The notes under the pieces were generated by a model. It was not told where the DNA came from. It worked only from the letters and a program-made list of their open reading frames with translations, and ran no database searches. A stretch of 33,912 bases of DNA from Chrysochromulina tobinii. Taxonomy: Eukaryota. A program made the translations under genes and the position numbers. Positions within the stretch are counted from its first letter, which is position 1; each line of letters begins with the position of its first letter. Positions 1 through 28,301 of this stretch are shown piece by piece. The stretch is taken from contig JWZX01002205.1 of the NCBI GenBank assembly GCA_001275005.1, positions 1-33,912 on the forward strand, given 5' to 3'.

Positions 1-1711
1 TCACATCTGAGGCCTCAAAGAAGGCGGGTGCGGATGGCGCGGCGGCGGTGGCGGTAGCGGGGCAAAAAGCAAGGGCGTCGGCAGCTGAGCAGGGCGCCAG
101 CCGAGCGGCGAAGCAGCTGCCTGCAACGACGCCACCGGTACAGGCGGCAGTTGCGGCAATGTGACCGGCGGCGGCGGTGGCATACTCGCTGGCGGCGGCG
201 GCAGTGCTGCCGCCATCTCCGCAACTGCCGAGGCTGCCAGAGTCGCTGCCGCCACCGCCAGTGCCGACGCCGGCTGTCTTGCTGCCGCCACTGCCGCCAC
301 TGCCGCGCCTTCCGCCGCGCCTTCTGCCGCCGCATCCACTGCGGCGGCATGCGACGCCTCCAGCATTGCCAGGCGGTGGCGCGCATCGCGCCCGTCCTCC
401 TGCAGCGCTACCGCCGCCGCGCGCAGCCGCCGCGCCTCCTCGCGCGCCTCGTCAAGTTCCCGATGCGCTTCGGCCAGCAGACGCTCCTTGGTGTCGAGAC
501 GGCGCTCCATCGCGCGCACCTGCTCGGTTGCGGACTGCATGTCGTGTGCACGGCTTGCACCTGATGAGGCGGGCACTCAGCATGCCCTCAGCATGCCCTC
601 AGCATGCACTCATCATGCACTCAGCATGCACTCAGCATGCACTCATCATGCACTCATCAACATCATTCACTCGGCATCTTGCACTCAGCATGTCGTGTGC
701 ACGGCTCGCACCGGCCTCGTGCGCGTTTGCGTCGGCATGTGCGAGCTCGCGCAGCAGTAGCTGTGTCACTGCTTTCCCCTGCGCGAGCTGCCACATCAAA
801 CCTTCGCTCTTCTCGGCCTGACGCAGCGAGCTGGCCTGCGCCTTCTGCAGCTGCTCGACGGCCGCACGCCGCTGCGCGTGTGCGCCGAGCTCGCGCATGT
901 GGCTTGCGTTTGCCTGCGCCTGCGTGCCATTGAGGGCCTCGGCCGTGCGCGCGAGCGTCGCGTGCGTCGCCGCGAGCTCAGCCTCTTTGGCCGCGTGCGC
1001 GCGTTCCTTGTCTGCTGCGGCGTCGCGCGCCTGCTGCACCTCGCGTAGCGCGAGCTTGAGGCGCTGCTCGAGATGCGCGCGCGGTGCGGCCGCACGCTGA
1101 GTTGCTTCAACGGCCTGCAGCTGGTGGCGCATCGCTTCCTGGTCCTTGCGCACGCCGCCGATGGCGTCCTTGCATGCGTGCTCCGCCCGTGCGGTCGCCT
1201 CGATCACGCGGCTAACCTCCTCGATCCGCGCGCGGAAGGTGGAGATCAGGTCCTCAGCTTCCTCCTGCTCGAGGCGTAGCCGGCTCACCTCGGCGGTGCG
1301 AGCGCGCAGCTGCTCCTCGAGCGAGTAGAGCTGCTGGCCCTGCTGCTGCAGCTTGGCTTGCGCAGCCTTGGCCTTGTCACTGGTGAGCTTCTGCTGCAGC
1401 TCGTGTCGCGAGCGCTCGTCCTCGGCCGCCTTGTGCTGCGCTGCCGTGCGCTGGTCAGTCTCCTCCTCCTTGCGCGTCGCCTCATCGAGGCGCCGCTGCA
1501 TGTCGGCAAGCTCCGCCTGGCGTGTCTTCGCTGCTTCGACCTCCTCCTGCAGGCGAAGCTCAAGGTCTTGCGAGCGCTGCTCGAGCAGGCCGTTCTCGTG
1601 CACAACTCCCAGAAGAGCCTGCTTGAAGCGCGAGAGCGAGATGGCTTCCGAAACGCCCTCGGACACGGAGCACAGGCCGCCTGAGGGCTGCGTGCTGGGC
1701 GAGGCCGCCAT
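1..1711 (-). CDS. Coiled-coil protein with Pro-rich C-terminus; 2 exons, join(712..1711,1..560), 519 aa
   Basis: ORF 632..1711 (ATG at 1711; heptad-like E/Q/R/A-rich) and ORF 1..576 join in frame through a phase-1 GT-AG intron at 561..711 (...HEA G|ASRAHDMQSATEQ...). TGA at 1..3. Confidence 0.75.
561..711 (-). other. Spliceosomal intron, 151 nt, 11-bp tandem-repeat body
   Basis: Donor CCG|GTGCGA at 711 and acceptor GCCCGCCTCATCAG|GT at 561. The body is an approximately (GCATGCTGAGT)n array. Removal restores the frame. Confidence 0.85.
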
Positions 1712-1981
1712 ATCGTATCGTCGTCTGCAGGGCTCGCGATCGGAATTTCTTGTTTCGTTGAACTATTCGTCACATGCATGCCGCAATTTGGACCAAAAAC
1801 TTTACAGTGTGCGCACACATGTTGTCAACCCACACGGAACCCCGCCGGTGGCATCCGCGATCTGCAGTCCGCCGCGGCGTGCGTGTGGCCACTCGTGCAC
1901 TCCCCTTATCTCGCGCATCGCAGCCAGGTTCCGTACACGCCTATGTGCCTCTCAGTCTTGCATGCACTCCTCCTCGTGCGT

Positions 1982-3115
1982 CTAAATGCGCTGGGTCATC
2001 TGCTGCTCGACGTCGGATGCGTCGCGCGCCTTTACGGCCGCCGCTGAGCGCCGTTGCTTGAGCCAGTCGCGCCAGCCCTCGGGCTTTCTGCCAGAAGCGA
2101 GAGGTGGACCCCCGTTCATGCCTCGCATGCCTCCTAGCGACGCTGGCAGCCGGCGGGCGGCAGGCGGCGAAGGGCCGTCGGTGGGGTGCCCTGCATGCAC
2201 ATGGGCCGCGCGCGGCAGATAACGACCGTCGCCATAGGCGCGCTGGTCGTCGGCGTCGTCGTCGTCGTCGTCGTCATCGTCTTCATCGAGCTCGTCGCCG
2301 TCCTCGCCCTCGCCCTCGTCTTCTGCGGCCACGCGGGCCGTCTCCGCCTCCGCCTGGCGCTCCGCCCGCGCCTGCGACTCGAGGGCCTCGAGCTCATGCA
2401 AGTCGACCTCGGCAGCGGGCACCAGATGCATCTCGATGTGGCCCACCATCTGGCGCAGCAGACTCGCCGCCTCGGCGGGCGCGGTGCACTCGCGCCCGTT
2501 GATGCGCATGATACGGTCGCCCGCGGTGAGCGTACGCGCCGCGAGCCCACCTTCCTTGATGCTCTTGATCACCGAGTGCTCGCTAAAGTCGGGAGAGAAG
2601 CCCAGGCCGAGCATCGTAGCCTGCGTCGGCTTGACGAGCACGCGGCGCACGAGCCTGTCACGGCGCGGCCAGTACGCGCGCCATATGGCCTGCACGAAGA
2701 TCGTCGCGCGTTGAGCCGATTCGGGGCACTGACGCTTGCGGATCACGAGCTCGCCCGCCGGCGCCTCGCGGATGAGTTTGACCGCGTGCACTGCACTCTC
2801 GACTGGCTCGCCGTTGATCTCGAGCAGCTCGTCGTACATCTGGATGGGCGCGACGGATGAATCGGAAGCGAGCGGCATCGACGCGGGCGTGCCGGGCGCA
2901 GTCGTGTTGACAATCGCACGGTCCGGCTCTTCAGGCGCAAGGCCGATGCCGATGCGCGTCGTTGCCGATTCCTTACGGATCGAGACGGTGACTATCTTGG
3001 TGGCCGATTGTAGCACGAACGCGGGTAGCGTCAACGGCGTCGACTCGATGACGCGGCCCTCGACGATGCACTCCTCGTCGTCGCCCAGCGCGGCACCAGC
3101 ACGCACACGAGGCAT
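1982..3115 (-). CDS. PDZ-IQ-PDZ protein with acidic tail
   Basis: Two PDZ-like units (RIGIGL...YDELLEINGEPV...AVKLIR; MLGLGF...GDRIMRINGREC...AASLLR) flank an IQ-like motif VQAIWRAYWPRR, followed by a poly-Asp tract. ATG at 3115. Confidence 0.75.
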   Translation of the reverse strand: MPRVRAGAALGDDEECIVEGRVIESTPLTLPAFVLQSATKIVTVSIRKESATTRIGIGLAPEEPDRAIVNTTAPGTPASMPLASDSSVAPIQMYDELLEINGEPVESAVHAVKLIREAPAGELVIRKRQCPESAQRATIFVQAIWRAYWPRRDRLVRRVLVKPTQATMLGLGFSPDFSEHSVIKSIKEGGLAARTLTAGDRIMRINGRECTAPAEAASLLRQMVGHIEMHLVPAAEVDLHELEALESQARAERQAEAETARVAAEDEGEGEDGDELDEDDDDDDDDDADDQRAYGDGRYLPRAAHVHAGHPTDGPSPPAARRLPASLGGMRGMNGGPPLASGRKPEGWRDWLKQRRSAAAVKARDASDVEQQMTQRI

Positions 3116-3514
3116 GAATCCGTGCACGGGCTGAACGCGATGCGCAAGGGTCTTCTCCTCTTTTGAGCCGTTGTGAACGAGAACGCCCCTCCTGTGAATG
3201 CGCTGATTTTTGGGGGTGTGACTGACGAAAGCCTACCAAGGAGGAAAGGCGTTTAGCCTATCACCTAGATGGTCCTAGATGCACAAACATGATACATCTG
3301 AGCTAAGGCTGTTTTACAGGAGCCGAGCGCCGCCCAATTGGCGCCGCCCCGCGCAGCATGATCCCCTTGGCCCTGCACTGCTCAGAGCATTTCCCCAGGG
3401 AGTTTGTTCCTTAGATAAAGACTACAAGTACCTAAAGCGCGAAAGGTCGAAACGACAAATGTGGCATTTGACAAATGCCCCCAGTGCTGGACGCTGGATC
3501 CCGCATGGGGGCGT

Positions 3515-4492
3515 CTAGCTGCCCACCCGTACCAGCCGCCCGTCGAGGAGGTGCTCACCGCCACCGCCTCCTCCGCCCTCCTCAACCACAAGCCGGCCCG
3601 CCATCACGGCGCGCAACTCCGCTGTCTCAGCGCGCAGCGCTGCGCAGGCGCGCCGCTCCGCGAGCAGCGCGTGCGACGCCTCGGCGGCACGCTCGGCGGC
3701 GCGCTGGAGGGCCATCTGCTGGCTGTGCTGCACGACAAGCGCCGCCTCCAGCTGTGCCACGTGCACGCGCAGCCGCCGGCCCTCGGCGAGACTCCCGTCC
3801 AGCGCACGCCGTAGCTGCTCGTGGCCGTCCGCAAGGGCGGCGCGAGTCCGCGGCAGGACGTGCGCGACCGGCACGAGCGACTCCGGGTGGAAGCTGTTCA
3901 GGCCGACCGACGCCTTGGCCGCCCAGCTTGTGAAGCTGTGCGCCATCGCGCGCGCCGCGTCCTGCCTGACGAGGCTGGCCATCCGCCGAGCGCCAAGTGC
4001 GCGCGCTTGGCGCAGCGCCGCCTGCCGCTCGGACTTCAGACCGTGCGAGGCGGCCACCTGTCGCTCGGCTGCCTGCTGCGCCTTGACCTGCGCTTCGCGC
4101 AACGCGCGCTCGCGCTGATGCCCGCGCTTGCGCTCCGCGTCGAGCTCTGCAAGCAGTGCCGGCACAGAGGTGTTCTCGGTCTGCAGCACGCGCAGCTTCG
4201 AGGCCTGCCGCATGCGGAGGGTGCGCTCGCGCAATGCGGCTTGCAAGGCGTCCGCCGCAGTTTGCTCCATGGCCTCGGCATCGGCAGCCGCCGCCTTGAG
4301 CAACTCGGCGGCCTCGTTTGCAACCCGGACTGCTGCACGCTCTGCCTGCGGCGAGGTGTGCACGTGGACGATCCGCTCGTCCTCGAGCGCGCGGATCTCC
4401 TCCCCGAGGGTGCTGGCGATCACCAGAGCGGCATAGATCTCGTGCATCAAGAGCTTTGCGTCGTCCAGCACCGCGGCAGAGGCGGCGCTCAT
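3515..4492 (-). CDS. Coiled-coil protein of unknown function
   Basis: Helical A/E/R/L/Q-rich ORF of about 325 aa from ATG 4492, with GC3-rich codon use and an AT-richer upstream region. Confidence 0.6.
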   Translation of the reverse strand: MSAASAAVLDDAKLLMHEIYAALVIASTLGEEIRALEDERIVHVHTSPQAERAAVRVANEAAELLKAAAADAEAMEQTAADALQAALRERTLRMRQASKLRVLQTENTSVPALLAELDAERKRGHQRERALREAQVKAQQAAERQVAASHGLKSERQAALRQARALGARRMASLVRQDAARAMAHSFTSWAAKASVGLNSFHPESLVPVAHVLPRTRAALADGHEQLRRALDGSLAEGRRLRVHVAQLEAALVVQHSQQMALQRAAERAAEASHALLAERRACAALRAETAELRAVMAGRLVVEEGGGGGGGEHLLDGRLVRVGS

Positions 4493-4841
4493 TTTCGTTA
4501 CCGCCGGCGGGAACTTGCGCGAACACACGGGCGAAGACCGCAAGGGGGAGAAGGGGGAGGGGGGAGTCGGGGGTGTAAACGTGACTCAACAGATGCCTTC
4601 GGAGGCCTGGATTCCACGCACGTCTCGCTCGTGTTGAATGGACTCGAAAAATGGTACATTAGTAATGAAGTTCGGAAAAAACGCAATCAAAGAATTCGGC
4701 AAAAGGTTCCTGATTCGTCATTCTACTTCGGGAAATTTGCGAAGCATTTTTCTCCGATGCGGCGACAAAAAATCTGAGTTGATGGGGTACTCCTGTGCAG
4801 CCTCGGGCACAGCGGCGGTCCCGTGCGTGCCCGCCTCATTC

Positions 4842-5981
4842 ATGGCGGCCCGATTGCCCCTCCCCTATGCGGGCGACGAGTATCTCGCTGGAATTTGCAG
4901 CGTTCTCGTCAGGCACATGCTTGGCGAGCTCAAAGAGATCGGCCGCATGCTTCCAGACCACGGATTGAGCGAGCCCAGCTGTTCCTTGCTCTTAGTGGGC
5001 CAGCATCCTGCGGCGGTGTCGTACACCTTGAGCACCGTCGCGGCGGCGCGCGTCTCGGGCGCATTGCTCGACGTGCAGCGGCTGTCCGAGGAGACGACAC
5101 AGGAAGATCTGCTGCACATTATCGGCCGCCTGAACAGTGACAATAACTGCCACGGCATCGTGCTGCAGCTGCCGCTGCCGGCACACCTCGATGCTAGCGG
5201 CCTGGTGCACGCCATCGCTGACGACAAGGACATCGATGGGCTCAAGGCGGCGAGTATCGGCCGACTTCCAAACGGCTCCGAGCTCACGGCCGGACCGTGC
5301 ATCGCCGCGGCGATCGAGGAGGTGCTGCGCTCGCTCAATGTTCTCCCACCCGTCGCCGCTCCTTCCAAGTCGCCACCCAAGTCGCCACCCAAGTCATCGC
5401 ACAAGACGGCCAGCCGTATCTCCGAGGTGCCGCATGTGCTGCTGCTCAGCGTGCCGCCGCTACTGAGCTTCCCTTTGGCGCTCTCGCTCGAGGCGTCGGG
5501 CTGTCGCGTCACGTGTCTCGGCGACGACCAGCCCGTCGACGCGGTCCGCACCGAGCTGCCGCACGCCGACGTGCTCCTGATCGGCGCCCGCCGGCCTGAC
5601 GTAGTTGCGGCCCAGTATGTGCGCACGGGGTGCGTGCTCCTCGACTTAGGCCTCTCGACGAGCGCCGCGCCCAAACTGCTCATGCACGCGGATTCATCAG
5701 CCGATTCATCAGCCGATTCATCAGCCGATTCATCAGGCCTGTCCGACGACTCATCGGACGGCTGCAGCCCAGCAGGAACGCGCGACGACGGCTCGCGTGG
5801 CGGCGCCGCTCCGGCAGCGGCAGCGCCGACCATGGCGCGATCGGCCTCGCGCGAGGTCCTCTGCCTGTGCTGCAGCGACGGCCTGTCGGCAATGACCGCC
5901 GCTCTGCGCATGCGTCACCTGAGCCACACCGCCTTGCTGCAGCAAAACTTCCTCGAGCATGCTGGCAACGGTAAGCCCTAG
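4842..5981 (+). CDS. FolD-like (methylene-THF dehydrogenase/cyclohydrolase family) protein, divergent
   Basis: Contains the FolD signature LNSDNNCHGIVLQLPLPAHLD...IADDKDIDG, plus ADVLLIG and GCVLLDLG. Several catalytic and cofactor motifs are altered. Start uncertain (4782 or 4842). Confidence 0.75.
   Translation: MAARLPLPYAGDEYLAGICSVLVRHMLGELKEIGRMLPDHGLSEPSCSLLLVGQHPAAVSYTLSTVAAARVSGALLDVQRLSEETTQEDLLHIIGRLNSDNNCHGIVLQLPLPAHLDASGLVHAIADDKDIDGLKAASIGRLPNGSELTAGPCIAAAIEEVLRSLNVLPPVAAPSKSPPKSPPKSSHKTASRISEVPHVLLLSVPPLLSFPLALSLEASGCRVTCLGDDQPVDAVRTELPHADVLLIGARRPDVVAAQYVRTGCVLLDLGLSTSAAPKLLMHADSSADSSADSSADSSGLSDDSSDGCSPAGTRDDGSRGGAAPAAAAPTMARSASREVLCLCCSDGLSAMTAALRMRHLSHTALLQQNFLEHAGNGKP
5691..5736 (+). 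repeat. 12-bp coding tandem repeat (GATTCATCAGCC) x about 4, encoding DSSA
   Basis: Read directly from the sequence. Confidence 0.95.
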
Positions 5982-6357
5982 CATACCGGCCGCCTCCGAG
6001 TTAACCTCCGAGGCATCGCTGCGCAAAGGCGCATTATCCCTCGCTGTTTGCGGCCCGCCGAGCGTCTATATCGATACCATACCATGGGATCGGCCGGGTG
6101 AAGAATGCAACACAAGCAGGCTGCTTGTGTTGCTGTTGTGACTGACATGATGGTGTGTTGTCGCAGTTGTTGTGTGTCTGAAACTGTAATAAACTGTAAG
6201 TGTAACGGTCCGGAAACCGGAATGAAAATGCCATCGACCTTACCATTCTCCGGGCCGGGTTTCCAGGCCGTTTCGTTTCCTGACAGAGCGGGGGCGCTGC
6301 CGCGAGCTGCCCGGCAGGCGCGGAGGCGCGGCGCGCCGGCGCCCGGCGCGCCCCTTG

Positions 6358-8040
6358 ATGAGGGATGTAATTTCGCCTGCCTGGCTTAGTTTCCTGCACC
6401 CTCTCCTCCCCGCGAACATGCCAGCCGCAGTCGCGGCGAAGTTGAGGGTGCTCCAGTTCTCCAGGAGCAAGCCACCCGACGACCTCCCCACTATCATGAA
6501 TATCCCCCGCAAGGCCCTCATCGATGAGATCAACGGTCCGTACGCTGTGCTGCAGTCGCCTGCAAACCAAAGCAAACTGAAGGTGACCTTTGTGACGCCA
6601 CGCGACATTCGCAAGATCGATCCAGCTTTCGCCACTCGGCTTGAGCCAACAATCCTTGTGCGCACGGGCTGCATCATCGTTGCATTTGGACGCTCCGAGC
6701 TGCGTGTGATCGTCACGCCCGACGCGCTATTCTGCATGCTGCCTCCACATCTCACTCCAAACCTTGCGAGCACGAGCAACGGCAGCCCACTCGATAAGAT
6801 CCTGGGAGCCCTCCACAGAAACCTCGCTGCAACACGGACCGCTCCCGTCTCCGAGGTGGCCGTTCACTCGTCGTTAGGCTCTGCCCCTCTGCATAGCTCA
6901 GAGCTCGAAGAGAACTCGTTGCCCTCGCCATCGAAGCCCTTTCCCCTTCAGAGGAGCAATTCCGAGCCCGAACTCTCTACGCTCCTCCACACACCGTCCA
7001 GCTCTATCCTTAGGAGCGGCTTGCACCGAGGAGACAAGGGGGCTAGCAGCAGCTTAGCCAGCTTAGCCGAAGGCAAGGAGACGGGCTCGTCTTTCGAATT
7101 CCTTGCCTTGGAGGCGGTGCTAATGACAGTCTGTGGTGATCTGTCGCAGCGGCAGACGGCGCTCACTGAGGCGGTGCAGCGCGCTTTGCTGGCGCTGCGG
7201 CGCAGCGTGACGGGCACGCAAGTGGCGGCGAGCGCCCGGCAGCTCGACCACGTGCGGAGGCTGAAGCAGCAGGTGCGCGAGCTGCTGGGGCAGTCGATGG
7301 CGCTCGAGGAGGAGCTGCAAGAGGTGCTCGACGCGAACGAGGACATGGAGGCCATGTACCTCTCGCGCATACTCCTTTTCGTCGAGAACGCAGATGGCGA
7401 TCTCCCAGAGGCTGACCTGCACGACCACGAGGAGGTCGAGGTGATCCTCGAGTCGTACCTGCAGGAGGTGGGTGCGACGGTGGCCGAGCTCGAGGTGCTC
7501 ACATACGCCATCGAGGGCACCGAAAAGTTCGTCTCGTTCCGGCTCGACAGCGCGCAAAACCGGCTAAAGGCTCGACGAGGCGTGCTGACCGCCTCCGCCA
7601 CTACGCTCGGCCTGGGCAATCTCTTTTTGAACCTCTTTGGCATGAACCTTCCCGCCACCATCTTCGTCTCCTCCGCAGACGACGAAGACAGCGAGAATAC
7701 AGGGTTCTGGGTTGCCGCGGGCTGCATTACACTGCTCGTCACGGCGCTCTTGCTGTTCGTCAACGGCTGGTTTGGCCTGTGGCAGCTCGAGACCTGGTTT
7801 GGCACGTGCTGGGGCAAGAGCGACGAGGCGCATGCGCAGCTTGGTGGGCAGCTTGGGCAGCTCGGCGCCACGAAGGGCGGCGCGAGGGTCGCTGTACCGG
7901 GCACCTCGGCCGCGGGCGCTGTACCGGTCACCTCGGTCACGAGCGCTGCAAGCACTACTACTGCCGCGGTGGAACGAACGCCACCCATCACGCCACCCAT
8001 CACGCCACCGCCGCCGCCACGCCGCCAGAGTCGAAATTGA
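6358..8040 (+). CDS. MRS2: MRS2/CorA-family Mg2+ transporter
   Basis: FEFLALEAVL, DMEAMYLS, EEVEVILESYLQ and LDSAQNRL motifs; GMN motif (LFGMNL) at the end of TM1; second TM helix (FWVAAGCITLLVTALLLF). Start uncertain. Confidence 0.88.
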   Translation: MRDVISPAWLSFLHPLLPANMPAAVAAKLRVLQFSRSKPPDDLPTIMNIPRKALIDEINGPYAVLQSPANQSKLKVTFVTPRDIRKIDPAFATRLEPTILVRTGCIIVAFGRSELRVIVTPDALFCMLPPHLTPNLASTSNGSPLDKILGALHRNLAATRTAPVSEVAVHSSLGSAPLHSSELEENSLPSPSKPFPLQRSNSEPELSTLLHTPSSSILRSGLHRGDKGASSSLASLAEGKETGSSFEFLALEAVLMTVCGDLSQRQTALTEAVQRALLALRRSVTGTQVAASARQLDHVRRLKQQVRELLGQSMALEEELQEVLDANEDMEAMYLSRILLFVENADGDLPEADLHDHEEVEVILESYLQEVGATVAELEVLTYAIEGTEKFVSFRLDSAQNRLKARRGVLTASATTLGLGNLFLNLFGMNLPATIFVSSADDEDSENTGFWVAAGCITLLVTALLLFVNGWFGLWQLETWFGTCWGKSDEAHAQLGGQLGQLGATKGGARVAVPGTSAAGAVPVTSVTSAASTTTAAVERTPPITPPITPPPPPRRQSRN

Positions 8041-8537
8041 AGTGTAGGTAAACGGTGTAGTCTGTAGACGCGGAAATGACGGTGCTCACTCTCACTCCGT
8101 CCGTGCACCGCCGTGGTGACTGGTGTTTCTCGCGGACTCGGCTCTCGGCGCTCTCCGGAACTCCGCTCCGGGAAGCGCTTATATTTATTTGAAGGTGCAT
8201 CACGGTACACGGACACGCCGGGCCCCGCCGCGCGGCACCCGGACCGGTTCGGACCCGCGCCGGATCGGGGACCGTGCACCGTCGACCGACGCGCGCCGGA
8301 CGGGAACCGGGCGTCGGACCGCGCCGGCCGCCGCGAGCGGCGAGGCGCGAGGGGGGGGCGCCGGGGGGGCGACCGAGGCGCGCACGGCGAGCTCTCGGCG
8401 CAACCCGGACCGAACGTCGGAACGCTAACGTAAATTAGTTAGAAACATAGCGTAGGAATCATAGCCAACTCCGCTCTCAATAAAACAATAATCGAATACG
8501 ACGGTCACAGGTGACGCGCCGGTCACCGCGTCCGTGG

Positions 8538-9941
8538 TCAAGCTTCAAGGGCCGAAGCCGAAGCTAAAGGCCCCGCCCTGGCTTTCACACCGCGCGGCGG
8601 CTTCCCACACGGCCGCAAGGTGCGCAGTGTTGGGTAGGGGCAGGCGACGACGGGGTCGGTGGCGGCGTTGACGGGAGCGGCCGCTGCCGCTTGCGCTACT
8701 GCCTTGGCGTCCGCTGCCGCAGCCACAGCGCGCGCGCGCTTGCGCCGAGCAGCGGCGTCGACGAGCGTGGCGGCAGCGGCGGCGGCACGTTCCTCTGGCG
8801 TGTCGCGGAGCAGCGCCGCCGACACGAACCAGAGCGTGATCGCGTACCGCGGCCTCCGCGCGGGAAAGACCTCGTGCGGGACTGTACAGCTAGGGAAGAC
8901 AACAACTGTCCCACCGTGGGGCACAACCTCGACGGTGCAAGGGGCGCCTGGCGGCGCATCGGGCGCATAGCAACGCAGCATGCCGCCATCGTCGGCGCTC
9001 CAATCAGGCGCGTTCAAGTACAGGATCGCCGTGAGCACACGGTAGTTACGCCACTGCTCAACGTCTCGTTGCTCGCCGGTTCCGAGGCCCTGTCGTTCAC
9101 AGTGTCGTTCACAGCCTGGTGCGCTCGAGCTGCTGCCACGTGCGGCCGACTCGATGCCGTCGGTGCTGCGAGAAGCCGGGACGCGCTCGTTGTCCATGTG
9201 GCGCACGTAGCCGAACCGAGGATCGTCATACACAGCCACCATGCCCAGGCGTGGCACGAGTAAACGGCCGCAGCCCAGCACGACCTCGAGCTGTGCGCCC
9301 ACGCTCTCCAAAAGCTCGAAGCCACGGCGCAGCTCGGGCGGGCACGGCGCGTTGCCATCATCGTCATCGTCATCGCCGTCGCCCTCGTCGGTGAGCCGCA
9401 CGAAGCCCACGCGGTCGCCACGGGTGGTTGAGGCCTGCGCGTGGTTACGCCTGCGCAGCCCCCCATCGACGTCGAGCTGCTCAACTGCGGCGCGGCAGCG
9501 CGCGACAGAAGCTGCGTCCATTGCGTCGCACCACTGCGATGCACCACCGTTGCGGATGGACTCGAGTATTGAAGCGGGCACCGAAGGCCAGTTGAGGAGC
9601 ACCTCCCGGCGAATCGTGGTGGCTGTGAGCAGCTCTCCTACCCATTCGCCCGCTGCGAGCTCCTCGTCGAGCGTGACGGAACCCGAACTGTCCAAGCTCC
9701 CGACAGCCGGGCCTGGCGTGCCGTCAGCAAGGTTCTGGAGCAGAATATTGCCGTGATACATGGTGTACAGCGTCTCGCCGATGGTGAGAGTGGACGGCGG
9801 CGGCGCAGACGTTGGGGATGAATGGGGCAGTTGCTGACCATAGATGCGTGGCAGGTTGCCCAGAGCACGGCACCCATCGGTACCGCAGTCGTTGTTAGAC
9901 TTGCCGCGCAGCGAGACGACCCGTTTGTCATCAGTGAACAT
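8538..9941 (-). CDS. 2OG-Fe(II) oxygenase, PHD/EGLN-like prolyl 4-hydroxylase
   Basis: TRGDRV, GMVAVY, GYVRHMDN (HxD), RVLTAILYLN-x-PDW, GGMLR and PHEVFPARRPRYAITLWF (distal His and 2OG-binding Arg) parallel the PHD2 catalytic motifs. Start uncertain. Confidence 0.85.
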   Translation of the reverse strand: MFTDDKRVVSLRGKSNNDCGTDGCRALGNLPRIYGQQLPHSSPTSAPPPSTLTIGETLYTMYHGNILLQNLADGTPGPAVGSLDSSGSVTLDEELAAGEWVGELLTATTIRREVLLNWPSVPASILESIRNGGASQWCDAMDAASVARCRAAVEQLDVDGGLRRRNHAQASTTRGDRVGFVRLTDEGDGDDDDDDGNAPCPPELRRGFELLESVGAQLEVVLGCGRLLVPRLGMVAVYDDPRFGYVRHMDNERVPASRSTDGIESAARGSSSSAPGCERHCERQGLGTGEQRDVEQWRNYRVLTAILYLNAPDWSADDGGMLRCYAPDAPPGAPCTVEVVPHGGTVVVFPSCTVPHEVFPARRPRYAITLWFVSAALLRDTPEERAAAAAATLVDAAARRKRARAVAAAADAKAVAQAAAAAPVNAATDPVVACPYPTLRTLRPCGKPPRGVKARAGPLASASALEA

Positions 9942-10934
9942 GATATGTGGCGTCGCCAATGCACAAAAAGGCGGCCCGCGGGGTCCGCGGGCTTTCTCAC
10001 CGTGAACAGTCCGTGAACTTCCCGTGCATGAAATTATCTTGTACATGTATTTTCCAATATCCGTAATTCACGTTCCATCGACTATCCTCACACACGCCCA
10101 CGTGGCGCCGCTCGATGGCGGTCGCTCGCACGGCGCACGTCGGCTCTTGACAAGTGACAGGTGTGCGCGAGAGTGCACGCGGTGCACCTCCTTTAGCGCG
10201 CAAGCACCCGAAATCTCTGTGGTACCGATGAGGAAGTCTATGAGCACACGAGCGGCAACCTTAGCCAAGTAACTTCACGTTCGGCGGGTCTGTGACGCTA
10301 TCCAATTGAAGCAGTGATAGGACTGAGGCAACCACTCTCTGATCCTGGCACACCAAGAACTATGCTGGCCAGCCCTTGCAATATGCTAGACTTGCAAGTC
10401 TCTTACAGTGTGCTATTCGCCCGCAGGATGATGCGACTGTCGTGCATCCACATGACAAGGCACATACGGATTAGAGTAGACTGAGACTCATGCCTCCTAG
10501 GCCAGGCTGGCTCTGCATCAAAACAGTTTATTGATGTTAAAACGAACACTCACTCCGCGCCGCAAGCGGAACAGCTGGCCAATGCGTGCACGCACTATTT
10601 CAAAGTGTGACTACGCTATGTTGCGCGCACACACCCCGCCCGCCTGGGACCGCGACGAGCCGCGGCGACCGCCCTCGCGCGTCGCGTCGCACGCCGCATC
10701 CACAGGCGTATTCCAGGACCCAGCCCGCACCGCACCCCAAACGAAAACCGGGGCGTTGCGCGCAGCGGTCCAGACAACGCACATCGTCACTGCGGGCAGC
10801 GGTACGCATGCGCACGTGGCGGACGGCGCCAGGGGCCACACCTTCACGCTGGCAATGATTGAGGCATGATTTCGCGGGTCGCCCCGCAGCCTTATCGGCC
10901 GCGCAATCGAGACACGCAATCGAGCCGCGCACGA

Positions 10935-13900
10935 TCAGATCACCTCCCCATCATCGTCGTCCTCATCGTCATCCGCCTCCTCGATGACGGGCGCCATCTC
11001 GCCTAGTGTCGTCTCGCCAGCGGGAAAGCCTTCGGCGAGCGCCTTCGCTGCCTTGGCCTTCTCAGCCTGAGCACCGATGCCAAGAGTGAGATACGGATCA
11101 GATCAATCATAATCAACCATACTCAACCACACTCAATCATAATCAACCAACCACATGCAATCACCTTAGCTGCCTTCTTGCGCTCAGCCTCGGCTTTGGC
11201 CGCCGCCTCCTCAGCCTCGGCAGCGGCGTCGGCGGCCTCTTGCTCGGCCACCCGTCGTTGATGCTCCTCCTGAAGCCGTGCGATGGCCTCAGCGACAAGC
11301 TCTGGTGGAGGTGGTCGCATGTCGGGCCGCGTCCTGTTGAGCACTTCGAGCGCGTCCTTCGCGGCCTTAGCGGCTGGCGCCACGCGACAGTTAGAGGCGA
11401 GGTGCGAGAGGGCCCCGAGCGCCAGGACAGCATGCTCAGGTACCTAATTAGGCAGGCACTCGATTTCGACGAGACGCACTCAGAGGTCATCATAGGTCAT
11501 CATAGGTCATCATAGGTCACCATAGGTCATCATAGGTCACCATAGGTCACCATAGGTCATCAGAGGTCATCAGAGGTCATCAGAGGTCATCATAGGTCAT
11601 CATAGGTCATCATAGGTCATCAGAGGCCATGCTTGGCACTCACTGTCCCCCCCTCGGGTCCGATCATCGCCTCGGTCGAGCTGGTGAGTAGGCGCTGGAG
11701 CGCCGCGGCCGCGCGATGGACTAGACCAGGCTCCTCGCAGATGAGGGCAATCTCGACGAGAGGCTCGAGCACACCAGCCTGCAGGAGGCTACCGCCGATC
11801 TCAGGCGACTGCCAGCCCAGCAGAGTTGCGATGCCGCCCACGGCGGCGATCTGCGACTTGACGTCATCCGAGCCGCAGAAGCCTACGAAGACCTTGGTGG
11901 CCGTCGAGGTAGGGCTGGTGAACTTTTGGGCGATCTCGTCGTGGGAGACAAGGTTGGACATGGCCTCAATCGCGGCGCGTTGCACGAGCGGGTTTTCGGA
12001 GGTGAGCGCCATCTCGAGCGCGCGCCACCCCTTCTCTTTGACGATCTTCTCTTTGAGATCGTCCACAGTCGCCAGATTGCATAGGCACATGCATGCCTCG
12101 AATGTGCTCAGCTCATGGCTCAGATCATCAATGAGCTTGATGATCGGCTTGACCATCGCCTCGGGCCCTGAACCGGTGCGACGCGGATAGAGCGCCGGGT
12201 TGATCGAGATGCCCACCTGTTCCGGGAACCAATCGAGATGTACTCACATGCACTCAGAAGTCATCATCGGAGGTCATCAGAGGTCATCGGAGGTCATCAG
12301 AGGTCTTCGGAGGTCATCAGAGGTCATCAGAGGCCATCAGAGGTCATCGGGAGAGAGGCCTACCTTCGCGAGCGCCCAAGCTGCCGCGCTGGCGGTCTTC
12401 GCGTCCTCACTCAAGGTGAGCCCACATAGCGCCTTGAAGCCGCCTTGCTGCACGATCTTGCCGCGCGCGTCCGGCTCGGTGGCCATGGCGAGCAGCACGT
12501 CAGCCGCGGGCCGGTGGAGGGATTCACTCTTCGACTGGGCGAGCGCCTCGGCGACGACGAGGACGGCATCGTCCATGACGAGCCTGTGGGCGAGCTTGGT
12601 GAGGATGGCCGGGTCGTCTTCCCTCTCGGAGGGCGGTGCGCCGAGTCCGCCGGCGGCCAGCTGCTTCATCTGCTCGATCTGCGCCTTGTCCATTTCGGCC
12701 TCAAGTCGCTTCTGGTCGTCCGACTTTTCGCGCGGCGACACGAGCCTGATGAGGGAGGCAATCAGCGGCCATCATCAGAGGTCATCATCAGTGGTCACCG
12801 GAGGCCGTCCTCAGTGGTCATCAGTGGTCCTTCAGAAGCACTCACCGTCGGAAGGAGGAGAGGAGAGAGAAGCCGAGAGAAGGCTCTGACGCGATGGACT
12901 GGGAGAGGGCGGTGAGGGAGCCAAATGAGGTGCCTTGCTCGACTAGGAACATCTTCGTGTCGGGTAAGATGGTGAGGTACATGAAAGCCTCGACTGCCCA
13001 TCGGTGCACCGAGGGCGCCACCTGATGAGGGACGCAATCAGAAGCGCTCAGGGCAACTCAATTAGAGGCCATCCGATGCGCTCAGAGGCCATCAGAAGCA
13101 ACTTTGAGGCACGTTGAGGCACGTTGATGCATGTTGAGGCACGTCGAGGCTCGTCGAGGCAATGACGCAAGTTGAGGCTATCCAATCAGACGCACTCAGA
13201 CGCACTCAGACGCACTCAGACGCACTCGGACGCGCTCACCTTGGCCTCGAGCAACCCGAGCGTCGCCGTGAGCAGCTTGCCCGTCGGGTTGATGGTCACT
13301 CGGTGGCTCTGGTGGATGAGCGCCGTCTTGGCCAGCGCGACGCACGCGCGGCAGCGTACGCGCGGCTTGGTCGATTTGAGCATCGTCTTCAAGTTCTTAA
13401 TGGGCTCTTCGCCAGCCTTGTCCCGGAATTGCGACTGGTCACTCGCAGCGTGCGCGTAGATCTCCGCGAGCGACTTTTGGAGGTCTTCATCGTCCAGATC
13501 GGCCGCTTCGGCCAGGGACCAAAAGATGGACTCTTGGCGCAGAAGATTCGCGCCGACCTCCTTGTTGACCTCGAGGACTGCAGTCACGCCATGCACGGCG
13601 GCCACGTGCTCGGCCCACTCGACGTGATCGGATCTGAGGATAGGAGAGAGTACGGACTCGATGAGGGAGGCAATCAGCATGCAATCAGTCATGGAGTACC
13701 CCCATGCTCCGAGTGGGCACGCACCTGATGAGGGAGGCAATCAGCATGCAATCAGTCATGGAGTACCCCCATGCTCCGAGTGGGCACGCACCTGATGAGG
13801 GAGGCAATCAGCATGCAATCAGTCATGGAGTACCCCTATGGGCACGCACCTGAGGATGGGCGAGAGTACGGACTCGCACACTTTCGAGAGAGCGGGGGTG

Positions 13901-15102
13901 TTCTCGCCCTCCTCCTTGCCATCCTTGGAGCCCCCAATCTTCGCCATGAGCACCGAGAGCACCCCGAGCGCCATCTTGTGCTGCTGTGACTCCTCGTCAC
14001 CGAGCAGCCAGATGAGCTCCTTGAAGACCTGTGGAAGCACCGCACTCGCCGCCTCCTTATCTTTATCCACGACTCGAATGAGGCCGTCCTGGCCGGCACG
14101 CGCGATGCTCGACTCGTGGTGGCGCAGAAAGGGCAGCAGACTCACCACAAGCATCCCCTGCGCATCCTGCGTGCCGAGCGCCGAGCGACAGCCGGCGGCA
14201 CTCGCAAGCAAGGAGAGGGAGCGACGCGCCGTCAGCAGCAGGTTCTTGACGCGATCGGGCTCTTTTGGCGGCGCCGGTGGGAGGCCGTGCGCGATGGCCG
14301 CGGCGGCCGCCTCGGCATCCGCTTCGCCCAGCTCCTTGCCCGCCTCGGCCGCGGCCGTCGCGACCCCGAGCAAGCGACCAATCGCGCTGCCTCCTTGGGC
14401 CTTCGTCATCGCTTTGAGCACCTCCGACTGTGCCTTGTCCTCGGGTCCAGACATGCGGTCGAGCGCCTCGATGGCGAGGCCCACGATCGGCATCGATATG
14501 TCCGCGGCCTTCGCTACCTCGCTCGGCAGCAGCTGCACGAGCACCTCGACCGCGCCCGCGTGCACCAGCTCTGCAGAGCGGCCGCCGTCCTCCGCGATAC
14601 GCGAGAGCTTGCCTGCAGCCTGCAACTGGTCGTCGCTGCCGGCTGCGGCCGTACGCAGCATCTCCACGGCCTGCGTGGGCGTCGACAGGTCGCTCTTCGC
14701 CGCGCGCTCCTCCATGGCGCGCTTCAGCTTCGCTGCGAGCTGGACTGCCTCCTTGTTCGTCGGCTCGAGCTGCATCAGCATGCGCACATCCTTGAAGGCG
14801 TCGGCGAGCTTGTTCATCGCCTCGCATGCCTGCGCGCGGCGGTAGTACGCCTTGCCGTAGCGTGGGTTGATCGCGAGCGCGGCCGTGCAGTCCTCCTTGC
14901 TCTTCTCTGGCTGCGACAGCTTGAGGTACACGAGCGCGCGGTTGGCGAGCAGTGCGGACGCATCGGCGTGCTTCTTCTCAGGATCCTTGTCCAGCGCCGC
15001 CGTGTAGCTCGTCAATGCTTCCGGGAGCTTTCCCGCCTTCAGCTGCTCGTTGCCCGCCGCTTTGAGCGACTCAATCATGGACGAGTCGTCGGGCACGAGC
15101 AT
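10935..15102 (-). CDS. UNC45: UNC-45-like TPR + ARM/UCS myosin chaperone; 7 exons: 13850..15102, 13240..13633, 12846..13021, 12364..12745, 11644..12216, 11165..11443, 10935..11066 (about 1062 aa)
   Basis: N-terminal 3xTPR (LKAAGNEQLK, NRALVYLKL, KAYYRRAQA). UCS-like motifs RWAVEAFMYLT, RGKIVQQGG, AAWALAK|VGISINP, FEACMCLCNLA and VQRAAIEAMSNL. All six GT-AG junctions join in frame. Start 15102 or 15078. Confidence 0.85.
11067..11164 (-). other. UNC-45 intron 6, 98 nt, degenerate 10-bp repeats
   Basis: AAG|GTGATTGCATG ... GCTCAG|GCT; phase 0; units such as GATTATGATT and GAGTATGGTT. Confidence 0.8.
11444..11643 (-). other. UNC-45 intron 5, 200 nt, with 15 x 10-bp array (11481..11630)
   Basis: ACA|GTGAGTGC ... 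TAATTAG|GTA; phase 0; plus-strand units CA(T/G)AGGTCA(T/C). Confidence 0.85.
12217..12363 (-). other. UNC-45 intron 4, 147 nt, 10-bp array
   Basis: AAG|GTAGGC ... GAACAG|GTG; phase 0; plus-strand units AGGTCATC(A/G)G. Confidence 0.85.
12746..12845 (-). other. UNC-45 intron 3, 100 nt
   Basis: ACG|GTGAGTGC ... CTGATTGCCTCCCTCATCAG|G; phase 2; degenerate 10-bp units. Confidence 0.85.
13022..13239 (-). other. UNC-45 intron 2, 218 nt, two different 10-bp arrays
   Basis: AAG|GTGAGC ... CTGATTGCGTCCCTCATCAG|GTG; phase 0; plus-strand arrays CGCACTCAGA and about ACGTTGAGGC. Confidence 0.85.
13634..13849 (-). other. UNC-45 intron 1, 216 nt: three stacked mini-intron units plus a 27-bp copy of the upstream exon end
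   Basis: CAG|GTGCGT at 13849; units 13792..13849, 13725..13791 and 13660..13724; acceptor ATCCTCAG|A at 13634; phase 2 (L-R-S-D-H-V). Confidence 0.85.
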
Positions 15103-15533
15103 CTCATGACGCGTCTCGCGCGTGAACAAGAAAATTTTCGTCGTTCACAGCGACGGCACAACGTCGAGCCGGCCACAACAGTCCTCAAAGTGGGGAGCAG
15201 CTGTCGACTGGCCGCAACATGTATACAAAACGCCCCGGCGGCTTGCAACGTTGCAACGCGGGGCATACCACACAGAACTCGAGAGGCTCGAGATACAGAC
15301 GCCCGTTTAAGTACACGCGGCTCGATGGTGCTCGCCTCGTCCCCACCCGCACTGTCACGCAACGCTCGCGCGGCAAGATGGCGAGAGGTTCCGCTGTGGT
15401 GCGCGTGTTCGCACGTGATCAGGTTCTCTCGCGCGCCACGCCGCAAGCAACGTCGCAGCCGTCTTCCGCGCAGTTCTGCTCACGCGTCACTCGTGACGAG
15501 ACCCAGCTGTCGGGGACTGCAGCGTGACGAACC

Positions 15534-16937
15534 TTAATCGGCGCGCGGGATGTCTCTCTCGAGCTGGAACTGCAGTGTGACGCCATCAGCCGAGTAGCGC
15601 GTCACGAGTATGAGCCATTCGCCCTCGGTCACCACAAAGGGCGCGGGCGCCATGCCCGCGGCGGCCTGCGAGAGGTCCTCGATGAGCTGCAGGCCCTGCC
15701 CCCACTGCATGTCGCGCGGGAAGTTATCGAGCGTCGCATCCGGATGGGTCGACATCGTCGCGACCAAGGGGCGTGGCGGCGCTGGTGGCAGCGAGCCGCC
15801 GCCAACGCCGCCGCCGCCGCTGCTGCTGCTGCTGATGCTGCTGTCTGCTCCGCTGGCGGCGCAGGCGTCGAGGGCGGCAGCGCCAGCCACCGGAGAAGAG
15901 TCATACACCTCCCACGAGGCAAGAATAGCATGCACCTTGCCCGATTTGGTCGCCTGCACGCGCTGGCGCATCTCTCCGCGCCACAAGCCAACTACGTCGT
16001 ACGCAAAGTCGACGTGTAGCACTGCCTGTCGTGCGGCGAGCTCGCGGTAGTGGCACGAGGAGAAGCGGAAGCCGTACTGCTTGGTGAAGACCATCGAGGT
16101 CGTGTCCTGAAGCGTGTTGAACCAGCCGAGATCGATACCCTCCCACGAGCGCACCTGATGAGGGAGGCAATCAGAGGTCATCAGAGGCCATCAGAGGTCA
16201 TCAGAGGCCATCAGAGGCCATCAGAGGCTATCAGAGGCTCTCACCGACGTGATCGACTCGATGTCCTGACTCTCGACGAGCGTGGCGAACTGGCAGCCGG
16301 CGCGCGGCACGACGGCGGCGTTGTGCGCGACGAGGCGCTGACGCGCGTCCATCACGTAGTGCAGCGCCGACTCACCCAGTAGCAGAGTGCCCAGGATCTC
16401 TGAGAGCAAGACAGTCGGCGTGCCGCCATATGCGGCGACCTCCTCCGGCTGACACTCGGTCGACATCTTGTTAATGATGTGTATGCGCGATTCGAAGCCG
16501 TTGCGCCGGATGATCTCGCGCGCCACGTTGGCCAGGTGGCGGTTCGCTTCGATGGCGATCACGGCCTTGGCACCGAGCGAGGCCGCGATGATCGAGAGCA
16601 GGCCCGAGCCCGCTCCGATCTCGAGCACGATCGACTCGGGCGTCACGACGCGGCGGAGGCAGTCGCGGTAGAACTCGTTGCGCGGATGGTCGTTCATCAT
16701 AGCGTAGTGCCAGTCGTTGGCCGCTTCGATGAGCTCATATGGCTTGTCGCGCAGCCGCTCGGGTATTAGGAATGCTTTGGGCACATTGGCCTCGAAGAGG
16801 TTCGTCTCCTTGCCTTCCGATCCGGGAGGCTTGTAGGGCATCCCCTCGTCGTACGGCTCGTCGCCGTCGTAGGCGTCATAGTCGTGCTCGTCATAGCCCT
16901 CCTGCTCGGCCAGCTCGTCGTCTGGCGCGTCACTCAT
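15534..16937 (-). CDS. Protein arginine methyltransferase-like (PRMT7/PRMT9-related), single domain; join(16245..16937,15534..16154)
   Basis: WHYAMMNDHPRNEFY, SAM motif I VLEIGAGSGLLS, double-E loop SEILGTLLLGE, beta-barrel ending RDMQWGQ. In-frame join ITS|VRSWEGIDL. Start 16937 or 16958. Confidence 0.82.
16155..16244 (-). other. PRMT intron, 90 nt, 7 x 10-bp array plus family 3' motif
   Basis: TCG|GTGAGA ... CTGATTGCCTCCCTCATCAG|GTG. It contains an in-frame TGA, so it must be spliced. Plus-strand units TCAGAGG(T/C)CA at 16171..16240. Confidence 0.88.
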
Positions 16938-17114
16938 GCCGACGGCCTCTGTGTTCATGCACGCTTTCGCAAAGACCTCGTCGCCAATGTGAAAAGTAAA
17001 CATAGGCTGTGTAAAGTCATCGGCAAGTCTTCCTGTTGTGAATAGAAGCAGGTGTTGGCGGCTGAAATGGGAGGGAAGTTGTGCGGACGCGCTGGTGCGG
17101 ACGCGCCCTCTTCC

Positions 17115-27377: not shown

Positions 27378-28301
27378 TCTCGAGGTTTCTGAGGGTCTCC
27401 CCGCGTCGCGTGTACCTCGTGGTAGAAAGTCCCAAAGAGAGAAATCGTCAATTGGCAAGTTTTTCGCCGCACAACCCTGCCGCGACGGTATCCGGATACG
27501 TGATACATGTAAAAAGACACAGATACATGTACACAAAGCTGTGTGAAAGCGGAAAGACGGCGCCACTTTTGTGTGCGACTTGCGTGCGTATGTTCCCGAC
27601 GCTCGTTTTCTTCCGGTTTGCACGATGAAGAACCGCAGGACCATCGGGAACGCCGAACGCTCGGTGACCCGTCTCGACTGGTGCGCGCAAAGGTACGTAC
27701 TACCGTTGGCCCCGAGCGCTGACGCGCATGATCAAATCGCGCGCTTTCAGACCAGCGCCGTGATTGGCCCCAGCCCCGCAGTGCCCGCGCCAAGCAATGC
27801 ACTGGGCGCGCACGCGCGCGAGCCAACCCAGTGGCCGCACGCTGGCGATCGATATCGCGCGACTCATCGTGCGCTACCCGCCCGCCCGCCTTCCTACGCA
27901 GGGACTACATCCTGAGCCGTCTGCACTACATTGATATCACCACCTCCCTTGCAGTGGCTTTGGCCGCTGCCGTGGCTATGGCCGTTGAGTTGTCGGCCGC
28001 TGCGATCCTCACCTCCGCCGCGGCAGCCACGACTCTGGTCGGCGTCACGGTCACCAGCTCTCCGACCGTCACCAAACAAACGGCTGTCGTTTCGCTGGCC
28101 CTCGGCCGCGACCCCAACTTTCGCCTCCTGGGCTCTTGCATCGCCATCATTGCCGCGGTTGCCGTGCTCGCCGCCATCCTCTCCTGCAGCCGATGGATCT
28201 CCAAACCTGAGCGGAAATTGAAAACGGGTACCAACCGTTCCGGTGGGCTTCCGACATCGCTCCGTCCACACCCGAAACTCCCGACCACTGTTTGCCTCAC
28301 A

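Follow-up and report, generated by a model that had tools for sequence, protein, structure and literature searches.

Cassette-ended introns of the haptophyte Chrysochromulina tobinii are likely to arise from copied intron ends and not from a classical transposon

Introduction

Where newly gained introns come from is in most cases not known (PMC4202315), and only a small number of introns have been recorded as derived from another intron (PMC3443670). Introners (Gozashti et al. 2022, 10.1101/2022.06.06.494994, PMC9860276; Gozashti et al. 2025, PMC12130899; Roy et al., 10.1101/2020.10.14.339549) form families known in marine Chrysochromulina MAGs and in Emiliania, where one 5-copy family is annotated '10bp terminal direct repeats, co-opt 5' carry 3''; the published survey assigned 0 families to C. 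tobinii. Like the C. tobinii introns described here, introners carry one splice site, obtain the other from a target-site duplication and show a phase-0 bias. However, each introner class has short duplications of one set length (3-8 nt in Polarella, 4 nt in a Chrysochromulina MAG example), whereas those of C. tobinii span 11-55 nt, and introner copies are alike from end to end, whereas here only about 20 nt are fixed and pieces of other introns are captured. The C. tobinii introns have no inverted ends, a trait that some introner families share. A sequence-only reading of the locus had already set these introns apart from known introners, and the variable long duplications, missing inverted ends and dissimilar copies uphold that distinction.

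Three further processes are related. Intron gain at staggered breaks in Daphnia pulex (PMC4202315) resembles the present case in the duplication of an exon end at the far end of the intron, in repeated events per site and in internal repeats; the Daphnia repeats are 4-12 bp and most insert sources are unknown, whereas here the repeats are longer and the source can be traced to other introns. A new intron made from an existing one, with working splice signals, is likewise the outcome of intron transposition and of intron transfer, for which a review counts 14 and 3 events (PMC3443670); those models invoke reverse splicing or paralogue recombination, from which neither a long duplication nor a 5'-truncated copy would be expected. 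Breaks can also be patched with sequence templated elsewhere (templated sequence insertions, PMC5110952) or with telomere repeats (interstitial telomeric insertions, PMC7215372), sometimes with duplication, much as proposed here; creation of introns is not reported in the consulted sections of these papers, and in those sections of PMC7215372 no human telomeric insertion is exonic. The consulted sections of three papers make no mention of the cassette introns.

Results

Introns of the window

The window is the whole 33,912-nt stretch of C. tobinii contig JWZX01002205.1 that was analysed, and its features are collected in Table 1. A 20-nt cassette matches the window seven times with up to 3 mismatches, always on the minus strand, against an expectation of 0.01, and seven matches were reached in 0 of 100 shuffles of the window. 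It forms the 3' end of the introns at 561, 12746, 13022 and 16155, which lie in three unrelated genes, and the other three matches are internal to intron 13634-13849; the sequence-only reading had named these four introns and the recurrence within the fifth. The cassette contains CTGAT, which we take to be branch-point-like, and the exact copy at 16155-16174 can form a weak 5-bp hairpin (-1.3 kcal/mol).

Tandem Repeats Finder detected an array in all eight mapped introns, with periods of 10-11 in six, 13 in one and 67 in intron 13634-13849. The earlier claim that all eight mappable introns are built of tandem repeats stands; two further GT-AG candidates, 27693-27901 and 28693-28767, have no repeats, so the claim would be too wide for every intron of the window. 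Emiliania huxleyi introns, in the 2013 work of Read and colleagues, reportedly contain 10-11-bp tandem repeats, with the same period and intronic location as here; we know of no link between those repeats and duplications or intron gain. Contig depth over the repeats was about 43,000-47,000 as against 65-100, a figure that measures abundance and not copy number. An Rfam search of 11000-16400 gave four sub-threshold matches to archaeal C/D snoRNAs, which we attribute to chance occurrences of CTGA/TGATGA words, and a likeness of the repeat unit to the hammerhead core had no Rfam support.

Table 1. Features of the window (all on the minus strand)
Feature	Position	Strand	Basis
Predicted intron in the gene (1-1711) of a coiled-coil protein: downstream exon start copied (24 nt), 11-nt repeats, 3-mismatch cassette	561..711	-	frame test
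Intronic duplication copy, putatively supplying the predicted GT donor	688..711	-	
Exonic duplication copy, 1 mismatch	537..560	-	
UNC-45-like gene, 1062 aa once six introns are removed	10935..15102	-	
UNC-45 intron 1: 67-nt unit x2.7, three internal cassettes; own donor carried, acceptor from 27-nt duplication	13634..13849	-	RNA fit
Intronic copy of 27-nt duplication, ends in AG	13634..13660	-	
Exonic copy of 27-nt duplication	13850..13876	-	
UNC-45 intron 2: 10-nt repeats, acceptor cassette with 1 mismatch	13022..13239	-	RNA fit
UNC-45 intron 3: repeats, exact acceptor cassette	12746..12845	-	RNA fit
UNC-45 intron 4: 10-nt repeats, cassette absent	12217..12363	-	RNA fit
UNC-45 intron 5: 10-nt unit x15, full cassette absent	11444..11643	-	RNA fit
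UNC-45 intron 6: degenerate repeats (10 nt, another type), cassette absent	11067..11164	-	RNA fit
Intron in SAM-methyltransferase gene (15534-16958): 10-nt repeats, exact acceptor cassette	16155..16244	-	
Exact 20-nt cassette: branch-point-like CTGAT, pyrimidine tract, CAG	16155..16174	-	

Splicing of the UNC-45 introns, which the earlier reading had assumed, is confirmed by RNA. An RNA contig of 3108 nt covers 10540-14626 of the window (4087 nt), and the shortfall of 979 nt equals the summed length of the six introns at their corrected limits (Table 1); the three listed pieces of the contig lie at the predicted offsets. Removal of all six introns therefore fits the RNA contig to the base. Intron 16155-16244 has partial RNA support, as the alignments of two RNA contigs end at its donor, and its removal extends the reading frame from 245 to 444 aa; for the predicted intron 561-711 the corresponding values are 359 and 519 aa.

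Terminal inverted repeats are absent from the ends of all eight introns, and the two exon duplications previously noticed are present, with 24-25 nt and 1 mismatch at 561-711 and 27 nt and 2 mismatches at 13634-13849. No duplication is detectable at the cassettes of 12746, 13022 and 16155. At the start of UNC-45 intron 4, 9 of 12 bases agree with the downstream exon, possibly a decayed duplication. Seven UNC-45 relatives with 57-66% identity are full length, have no extra residues at the six intron positions and appear, judged indirectly from their residues, to be intronless there; two relatives break close to intron 1, at a distance of a few codons. The metagenome calls of the UNC-45 gene itself end within intron 1, and among the exon-1 variants listed, 7 of the 7 that reach the junction read into this intron.

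Duplications and orientation in metagenome loci

The wider sample comprises 136 metagenome loci, from which genome-wide counts are estimates. GT or GC directly follows 140 of 163 terminal cassettes. At 77 of 161, the next 11-55 nt are also present as an upstream copy, against 0.5% in permuted controls and 4/161 at an offset of 40 nt; the remaining 84 have no detectable duplication. The fixed branch-point/acceptor cassette is thereby tied to long duplications, as had been suggested. The first copy has no preceding cassette in 59 of the 77 cases, and 48 of these 59 copies begin with GT or GC. It is likely, as far as sequence can tell, that the duplication supplies the GT donor and that the acceptor comes with the inserted cassette; intron 13634-13849 has the reverse arrangement (RNA fit). 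In the other 18 cases the first copy follows another cassette, which points to secondary events at old acceptors and not to new intron positions.

The cassette follows the coding strand, a bias that the earlier reading had proposed to measure: confident calls are 105 sense and 14 antisense, compared with 147:134 in the control. When the flanks of the 59 first copies are joined, 44 of 58 are coding in the sense direction and 3 in the antisense direction. Phase 0 is favoured (61/105), and the reading frame agrees across the removed segment in only 20 of the 39 cases with both sides called. Simple duplications have about 5% mismatch overall and 18 of 53 are still identical, a putative sign that supports recent gain.

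The exon begins directly after the cassette, with G in 149 of 181 contexts, leaving no poly(A) or other simple tail in between. Duplication lengths show no helical periodicity and no 10-nt period (Rayleigh p ~0.3, n=90). Mismatch at duplication positions 3-6 (0.061) is not distinguishable from that at later positions (0.047), giving no sign of donor-improving mutations. No presence/absence polymorphism was seen in 10 overlapping locus pairs, all fetched as cassette-bearing, and viral contigs contain 0 exact cassette matches.

Introns that resemble donor and copy

Up to five intron pairs resemble a donor and its copy, with an insert apparently templated at another genomic site: two are clear and distant, one is weaker and two are local. 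These donor-copy pairs are a new finding of this study. Introns L110 and L051 (donor first here and below) have 75 nt in common with 2 mismatches between unrelated flanks, together with 12 identical exon-start bases, a number reached by 0.01% of random pairs. L074 and L134, again with unrelated flanks, have 61 nt in common, including part of the exon-derived duplication of L074. In both clear pairs, which connect unrelated genes, the donor's exon-derived piece is thus present in the copy. The weaker pair, L106 and L057, has 39 nt in common; the local pairs have about 104 nt (L026, from 3113 to 245, 2.9 kb apart) and 42 nt (L094, from 522 to 320). Identical exon-start bases number 3-12 across the five pairs, against a random-pair mean of 1.8. 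Whole introns reappear in unrelated genes. Among the metagenome loci a donor was identified for none of the window introns.

Filler is common to neighbouring introns more than to distant ones: at least five bases before the cassette are shared by 17.3% of 139 same-region pairs and by 4.7% of 12,741 distant pairs, only 38 of which share at least 15. The repeat units are very diverse, the commonest 10-mer before the cassette occurring in 13 of 161 cases, and 10 of 17 arrays consist of units unlike one another. Near-identical copies of one locus differ by 80 nt in filler length, which suggests slippage. Microhomology at the variable junction is not in excess (mean 0.9 versus 0.75, n=20).

A second cassette family has a variable linker instead of repeats, and duplications of 10-40 nt at 13 of 27 sites versus 0.4% under the null; at locus L127 a single border bears cassettes of two different families. 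At L076 there are two predicted GT-AG introns of 111 and 112 nt with 11 and 3 telomere hexamers, both inside duplications and both ending in the last ten bases of the cassette; with both removed, 148 of 149 codons are open. This is the only one of 136 loci with telomere-repeat introns, and the window has none.

Discussion

Staggered-break repair, put forward in the sequence-only reading, remains the best frame for these observations, and new introns are likely to come from copied intron ends and not from a classical transposon. We lean towards a reading in which existing introns pass on the shared 3' end, by being copied into staggered breaks in genes or through a replication template switch. 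The strand opposite the message, ending at GT/GC, would pair, over a few bases, with another intron where its acceptor meets the exon, the template being either DNA or unspliced RNA. Copying would then run through the acceptor, pyrimidine tract and branch point of that intron and into part of its filler, followed by rejoining; fill-in would leave the 11-55-nt target duplication that gives the GT donor. Selection would retain insertions that splice out exactly, and slippage could afterwards lengthen or shorten the 10-11-nt filler. A new intron would again end in cassette plus GT and so serve as a template in turn, besides being a favoured target.

Alternatively, the reverse transcriptase of a non-LTR retrotransposon could copy intron-containing RNA, either unspliced or a circularised intron, by target-primed reverse transcription from the acceptor with variable 5' truncation. 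This would account for a 3' end that is fixed and a 5' end that varies, for the differing lengths of the duplications and the strict sense orientation, and for non-GT duplications that also end at the cassette; LINEs are reported in other haptophyte genomes. We nevertheless find it rather doubtful. A bias to nearby donors would be unexpected for a trans-acting enzyme, there is no tail, and the exon-start identity of donor and copy requires a template running beyond the AG, so that a plain excised lariat does not fit. The search for a reverse transcriptase or template RNA suggested earlier found neither, with no reverse transcriptase domain among 148 reading frames beside cassettes; an autonomous partner element of the introner kind was likewise absent from these frames.

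A telomerase or telomerase-like enzyme that uses one or a few short RNAs as template to extend the broken end, adding 10-11-nt units repeatedly, would explain the two predicted introns of L076. CCCTAA is the telomere motif of the haptophyte Phaeocystis globosa (PMC11347835), and mammalian staggered breaks take up telomere repeats, sometimes with telomerase-RNA sequence (PMC7215372). Against this stand the single locus of this kind, the diversity of the units and the repeat-free linker of the second family. The traceable copies take filler and exon pieces from other introns, which also makes the earlier idea of filler freshly synthesised from one short template less likely. No template RNA was found, the Rfam matches being sub-threshold C/D snoRNAs only. 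We regard this enzyme as an improbable source of the introns.

It is more improbable still that the introns are old, the cassette being a strongly selected splice signal homogenised by conversion and the duplications later local accidents at acceptors. The 84 cassettes without duplication, the 18 first copies that come after a cassette and the listed exon-1 variants, which read into intron 1 whenever they reach the junction, are what such a history would leave. However, 59 first copies have no preceding cassette and their joined flanks are mostly coding in the sense direction, the UNC-45 relatives appear intronless at six positions, and entire introns recur across unrelated genes. Tandem genomic duplication (the AGGT model) is rejected, since it takes both splice sites from the duplicated exon segment and involves no foreign insert, whereas the acceptor here comes from the inserted cassette.

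Returning to copying from existing introns, a bolder version, which we consider speculative and unlikely, is that C. tobinii has a self-propagating intron system that does without a dedicated element. A reverse transcriptase, perhaps telomerase, would prime at staggered breaks on pre-mRNA acceptor junctions and copy the intron ends, so that new introns would start from every existing one; a substantial fraction of the introns would have been built in this way, including stacked GT-AG units that need recursive splicing, hidden from introner searches.

Probably thousands of C. tobinii introns keep a dated footprint, in the form of two diverging duplication copies, and some also have a traceable parent. 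Because the alga is in culture and its genome is public, the mechanism can be tested by mapping parents genome-wide. C. tobinii was scored as introner-free, and our results suggest that one way in which introns are gained on a large scale escapes surveys that rely on similarity from end to end.

Repeat-built introns and their splicing

The 20-nt branch-point/acceptor motif CTGATTGCCTCCCTCATCAG (the cassette) has seven matches in the window at up to three mismatches, all on the minus strand, against an expectation of 0.01, which bears out the recurrence claimed in the sequence-only reading. As that reading also held, tandem arrays are present in 8/8 of the introns it named and inverted repeats are absent from the ends of all of them; two repeat-free candidates also lie in the window, around the start of a gene (27978-33308) without a Pfam match at E 0.001. 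The exon duplications claimed at two introns are both present, their lengths being 24-25 nt and 27 nt.

An RNA contig (run X13, record 20, 3108 nt) aligned across 10540-14626, and the 979 nt absent from it equal, by our computation, the summed length of the six UNC-45 introns, with the listed pieces at the predicted offsets. The contig therefore fits removal of all six, and the product of the spliced gene, of 1062 aa, aligns colinearly with seven relatives (57-66% identity) across 6/6 junctions. The public C. tobinii annotation, a member of the UNC-45 protein cluster, equals this protein minus 58 residues after intron 5; this gap is likely an annotation error, because the residues have support from the length of the RNA contig and from the relatives. 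One window protein shares a 90% cluster with Chrysochromulina parva.

Two local features were also observed. Within the 67-nt unit of UNC-45 intron 1, the stretch outside the repeats contains a perfect 9-nt copy, in inverted orientation, of nearby exon sequence (13613-13621 versus 13710-13718 and 13777-13785), and part of this unit may therefore be locally templated. RNA contigs pass colinearly through an in-frame coding 12-nt repeat with a cassette-like end.

Locations of introns and related features in the window and in metagenome-contig loci (L-numbers)
Feature	Location	Strand	Remark
UNC-45 intron 1	13634-13849	minus	
UNC-45 intron 2	13022-13239	minus	
UNC-45 intron 3	12746-12845	minus	
UNC-45 intron 4	12217-12363	minus	
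UNC-45 intron 5	11444-11643	minus	
UNC-45 intron 6	11067-11164	minus	
Intron	16155-16244		frame test, partial RNA support
Predicted intron	561-711		frame test only
Candidate GT-AG intron	27693-27901	plus	no tandem repeats; around start of long lower-GC gene
Candidate GT-AG intron	28693-28767	plus	no tandem repeats; around start of long lower-GC gene
Coding repeat	5691-5736		
Telomere-repeat introns	L076:1901-2177	minus	two predicted, GT-AG, 111 and 112 nt, each within a duplication
Second cassette family	L048, L077, L009, L021, L046, L078, L112, L127 and others		
Longer fixed form	L007, L041, L118, L135, L022		
Stacked units	L009, L014, L042, L061; 13634-13849		
Inserts without cassette	L078:2804, L125:462, L075:1726, L003:1253		15-25 nt, within 23-30-nt duplications

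The cassette family in metagenome contigs

An exact-match scan of metagenome contigs retrieved at least 136 loci, with about 2,200 stretches estimated. Overlapping loci across assemblies are mostly ~99% identical, so the sample probably represents one species group. Duplicates were dropped by the 40 bases after the cassette, which left 184 array-ending cassettes, among which alleles that are not identical may appear twice. GT or GC directly follows the cassette in 140/163 (the set within 2 mismatches), and an upstream copy of the next 11-55 bases is found at 77/161 AG-ending cassettes, compared with 0.5% of permuted pairs and 4/161 at offset; the remaining 84 have no detectable duplication. 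In 59 of the 77 duplications the first copy lacks a preceding cassette, and 48 of these 59 begin with GT/GC. The segments that they bound measure 50-425 nt, and their joined flanks are sense coding in 44/58 cases and antisense in 3, with both sides agreeing in frame in only 20/39 separately called cases. Among confident calls the downstream coding strand is that of the cassette in 105 cases versus 14 (control 147:134), with phase 0 in 61 of the 105. Simple duplications are still identical in 18/53 cases. At least 29 further terminal cassettes occur among 152,805 flanking bases; scaled to a genome of ~59 Mb, as given in the accessible part of PMC4580454, this suggests thousands genome-wide, an estimate that is biased upward.

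The same long-duplication footprint is seen in 13/27 cases (null 0.4%) of a second cassette, in which a branch-point-like core is fixed, the pyrimidine linker varies and CAG closes the motif; its core words occur in ~30/137 sequences. A longer, ~55-nt fixed form brings its own donor and takes its acceptor from the long duplication, an arrangement resembling that of UNC-45 intron 1; it is the most introner-like member. In L127 both families are inserted at the same border with unlike duplication lengths, and unlike units occur in 10/17 arrays. Duplication-filler-cassette units are stacked in some loci, and in several of these each unit starts with GT/GC and finishes with AG; they are candidate sites of recursive splicing through exons of zero length. 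Short inserts without a cassette possibly arose by the same route, only a short copy having been made.

Origin of the introns

We hold with moderate confidence, as the most likely reading, that an existing intron end (as DNA or pre-mRNA template) was copied into a gene at a staggered break or by a template switch; the donor would come from the duplication, selection would retain clean introns, and slippage would reshape the filler, the mostly 10-11-nt repeat part before the cassette. The whole L110 intron, which has a 20-nt duplication of its own, recurs in L051, whose flanks are unrelated; the shared 75 nt differ at 2 positions, and the first 12 exon bases are identical. Likewise, the final 61 nt of an L074 intron reappear in L134, and with them a portion of L074's exon-derived duplication. 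Weaker or local cases are L106/L057 (39 nt), L026 (~104 nt, 2.9 kb apart) and L094 (42 nt). The number of pairs fits the 2-5 computed if 161 introns each have one recognisable parent among 5,000-11,000. Filler is shared by 17.3% of 139 neighbour pairs versus 4.7% of 12,741 distant pairs, although alleles may be among the same-region pairs. Between two copies of a single locus, filler length differs by 80 nt, so slippage, or assembly collapse, acts on filler after insertion. Against the copying of intron ends count the lack of general microhomology at the variable junction and of a polymorphic intron among 10 locus pairs, a biased sample.

LINE-type reverse transcription of intron RNA is a distinctly less probable source. 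Out of 307 candidate reading frames, the 148 scanned had no reverse transcriptase or transposase domain. Telomerase-like synthesis on a short template is improbable, and the predicted telomere-repeat introns that bear on it occur in 1/136 loci. These L076 segments consist partly of telomere hexamers and end in the last ten bases of the cassette, one with a mismatch; their C-rich repeat includes a branch-point-like CTAAC, and with both removed 148/149 codons are open. Of the two, the second may have been copied from the first. Since telomerase synthesises the G-rich strand only, the predicted introns suggest synthesis on the antisense strand, from the acceptor side. The telomere motif of Phaeocystis globosa is given as CCCTAA in the accessible part of PMC11347835.

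Least probable of all is that the introns are old and the duplications later. Metagenome gene calls of UNC-45 end within intron 1, and therefore this calling does not splice; under such calling the full-length UNC-45 relatives, whose contigs reach 27.7 kb, are probably intronless at these positions, which speaks indirectly against ancient introns. Two other relatives break a few codons from the intron 1 position.

Relation to known systems

Introns in the Emiliania genome reportedly contain 10-11-bp repeats. In the parts available of two introner studies (10.1101/2022.06.06.494994; 10.1101/2020.10.14.339549), introners share the splice logic of cassette introns but have short, fixed duplications and copies alike end to end, unlike the cassette family with its 11-55 nt, in line with the mechanistic difference first proposed. 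The accessible part of PMC12130899 scores C. tobinii with 0 introner families and Emiliania with one 5-copy family with 10-bp terminal direct repeats; neither cassette occurs in the 12 of its 14 supplementary files that were searched or in the searched part of PMC9860276. Intron gains at staggered breaks in Daphnia, as available from PMC4202315, have repeats of 4-12 bp, compared with 11-55 nt here, and mostly unknown sources. For mammals, the accessible parts of PMC5110952, PMC7215372 and PMC2246262 describe both templated and telomeric insertions. The openly accessible literature searched yielded no description of the cassette family. We conclude that the cassette introns are real, that they are not classical introners, and that they are best regarded as a novel form of intron gain in which existing introns are copied.
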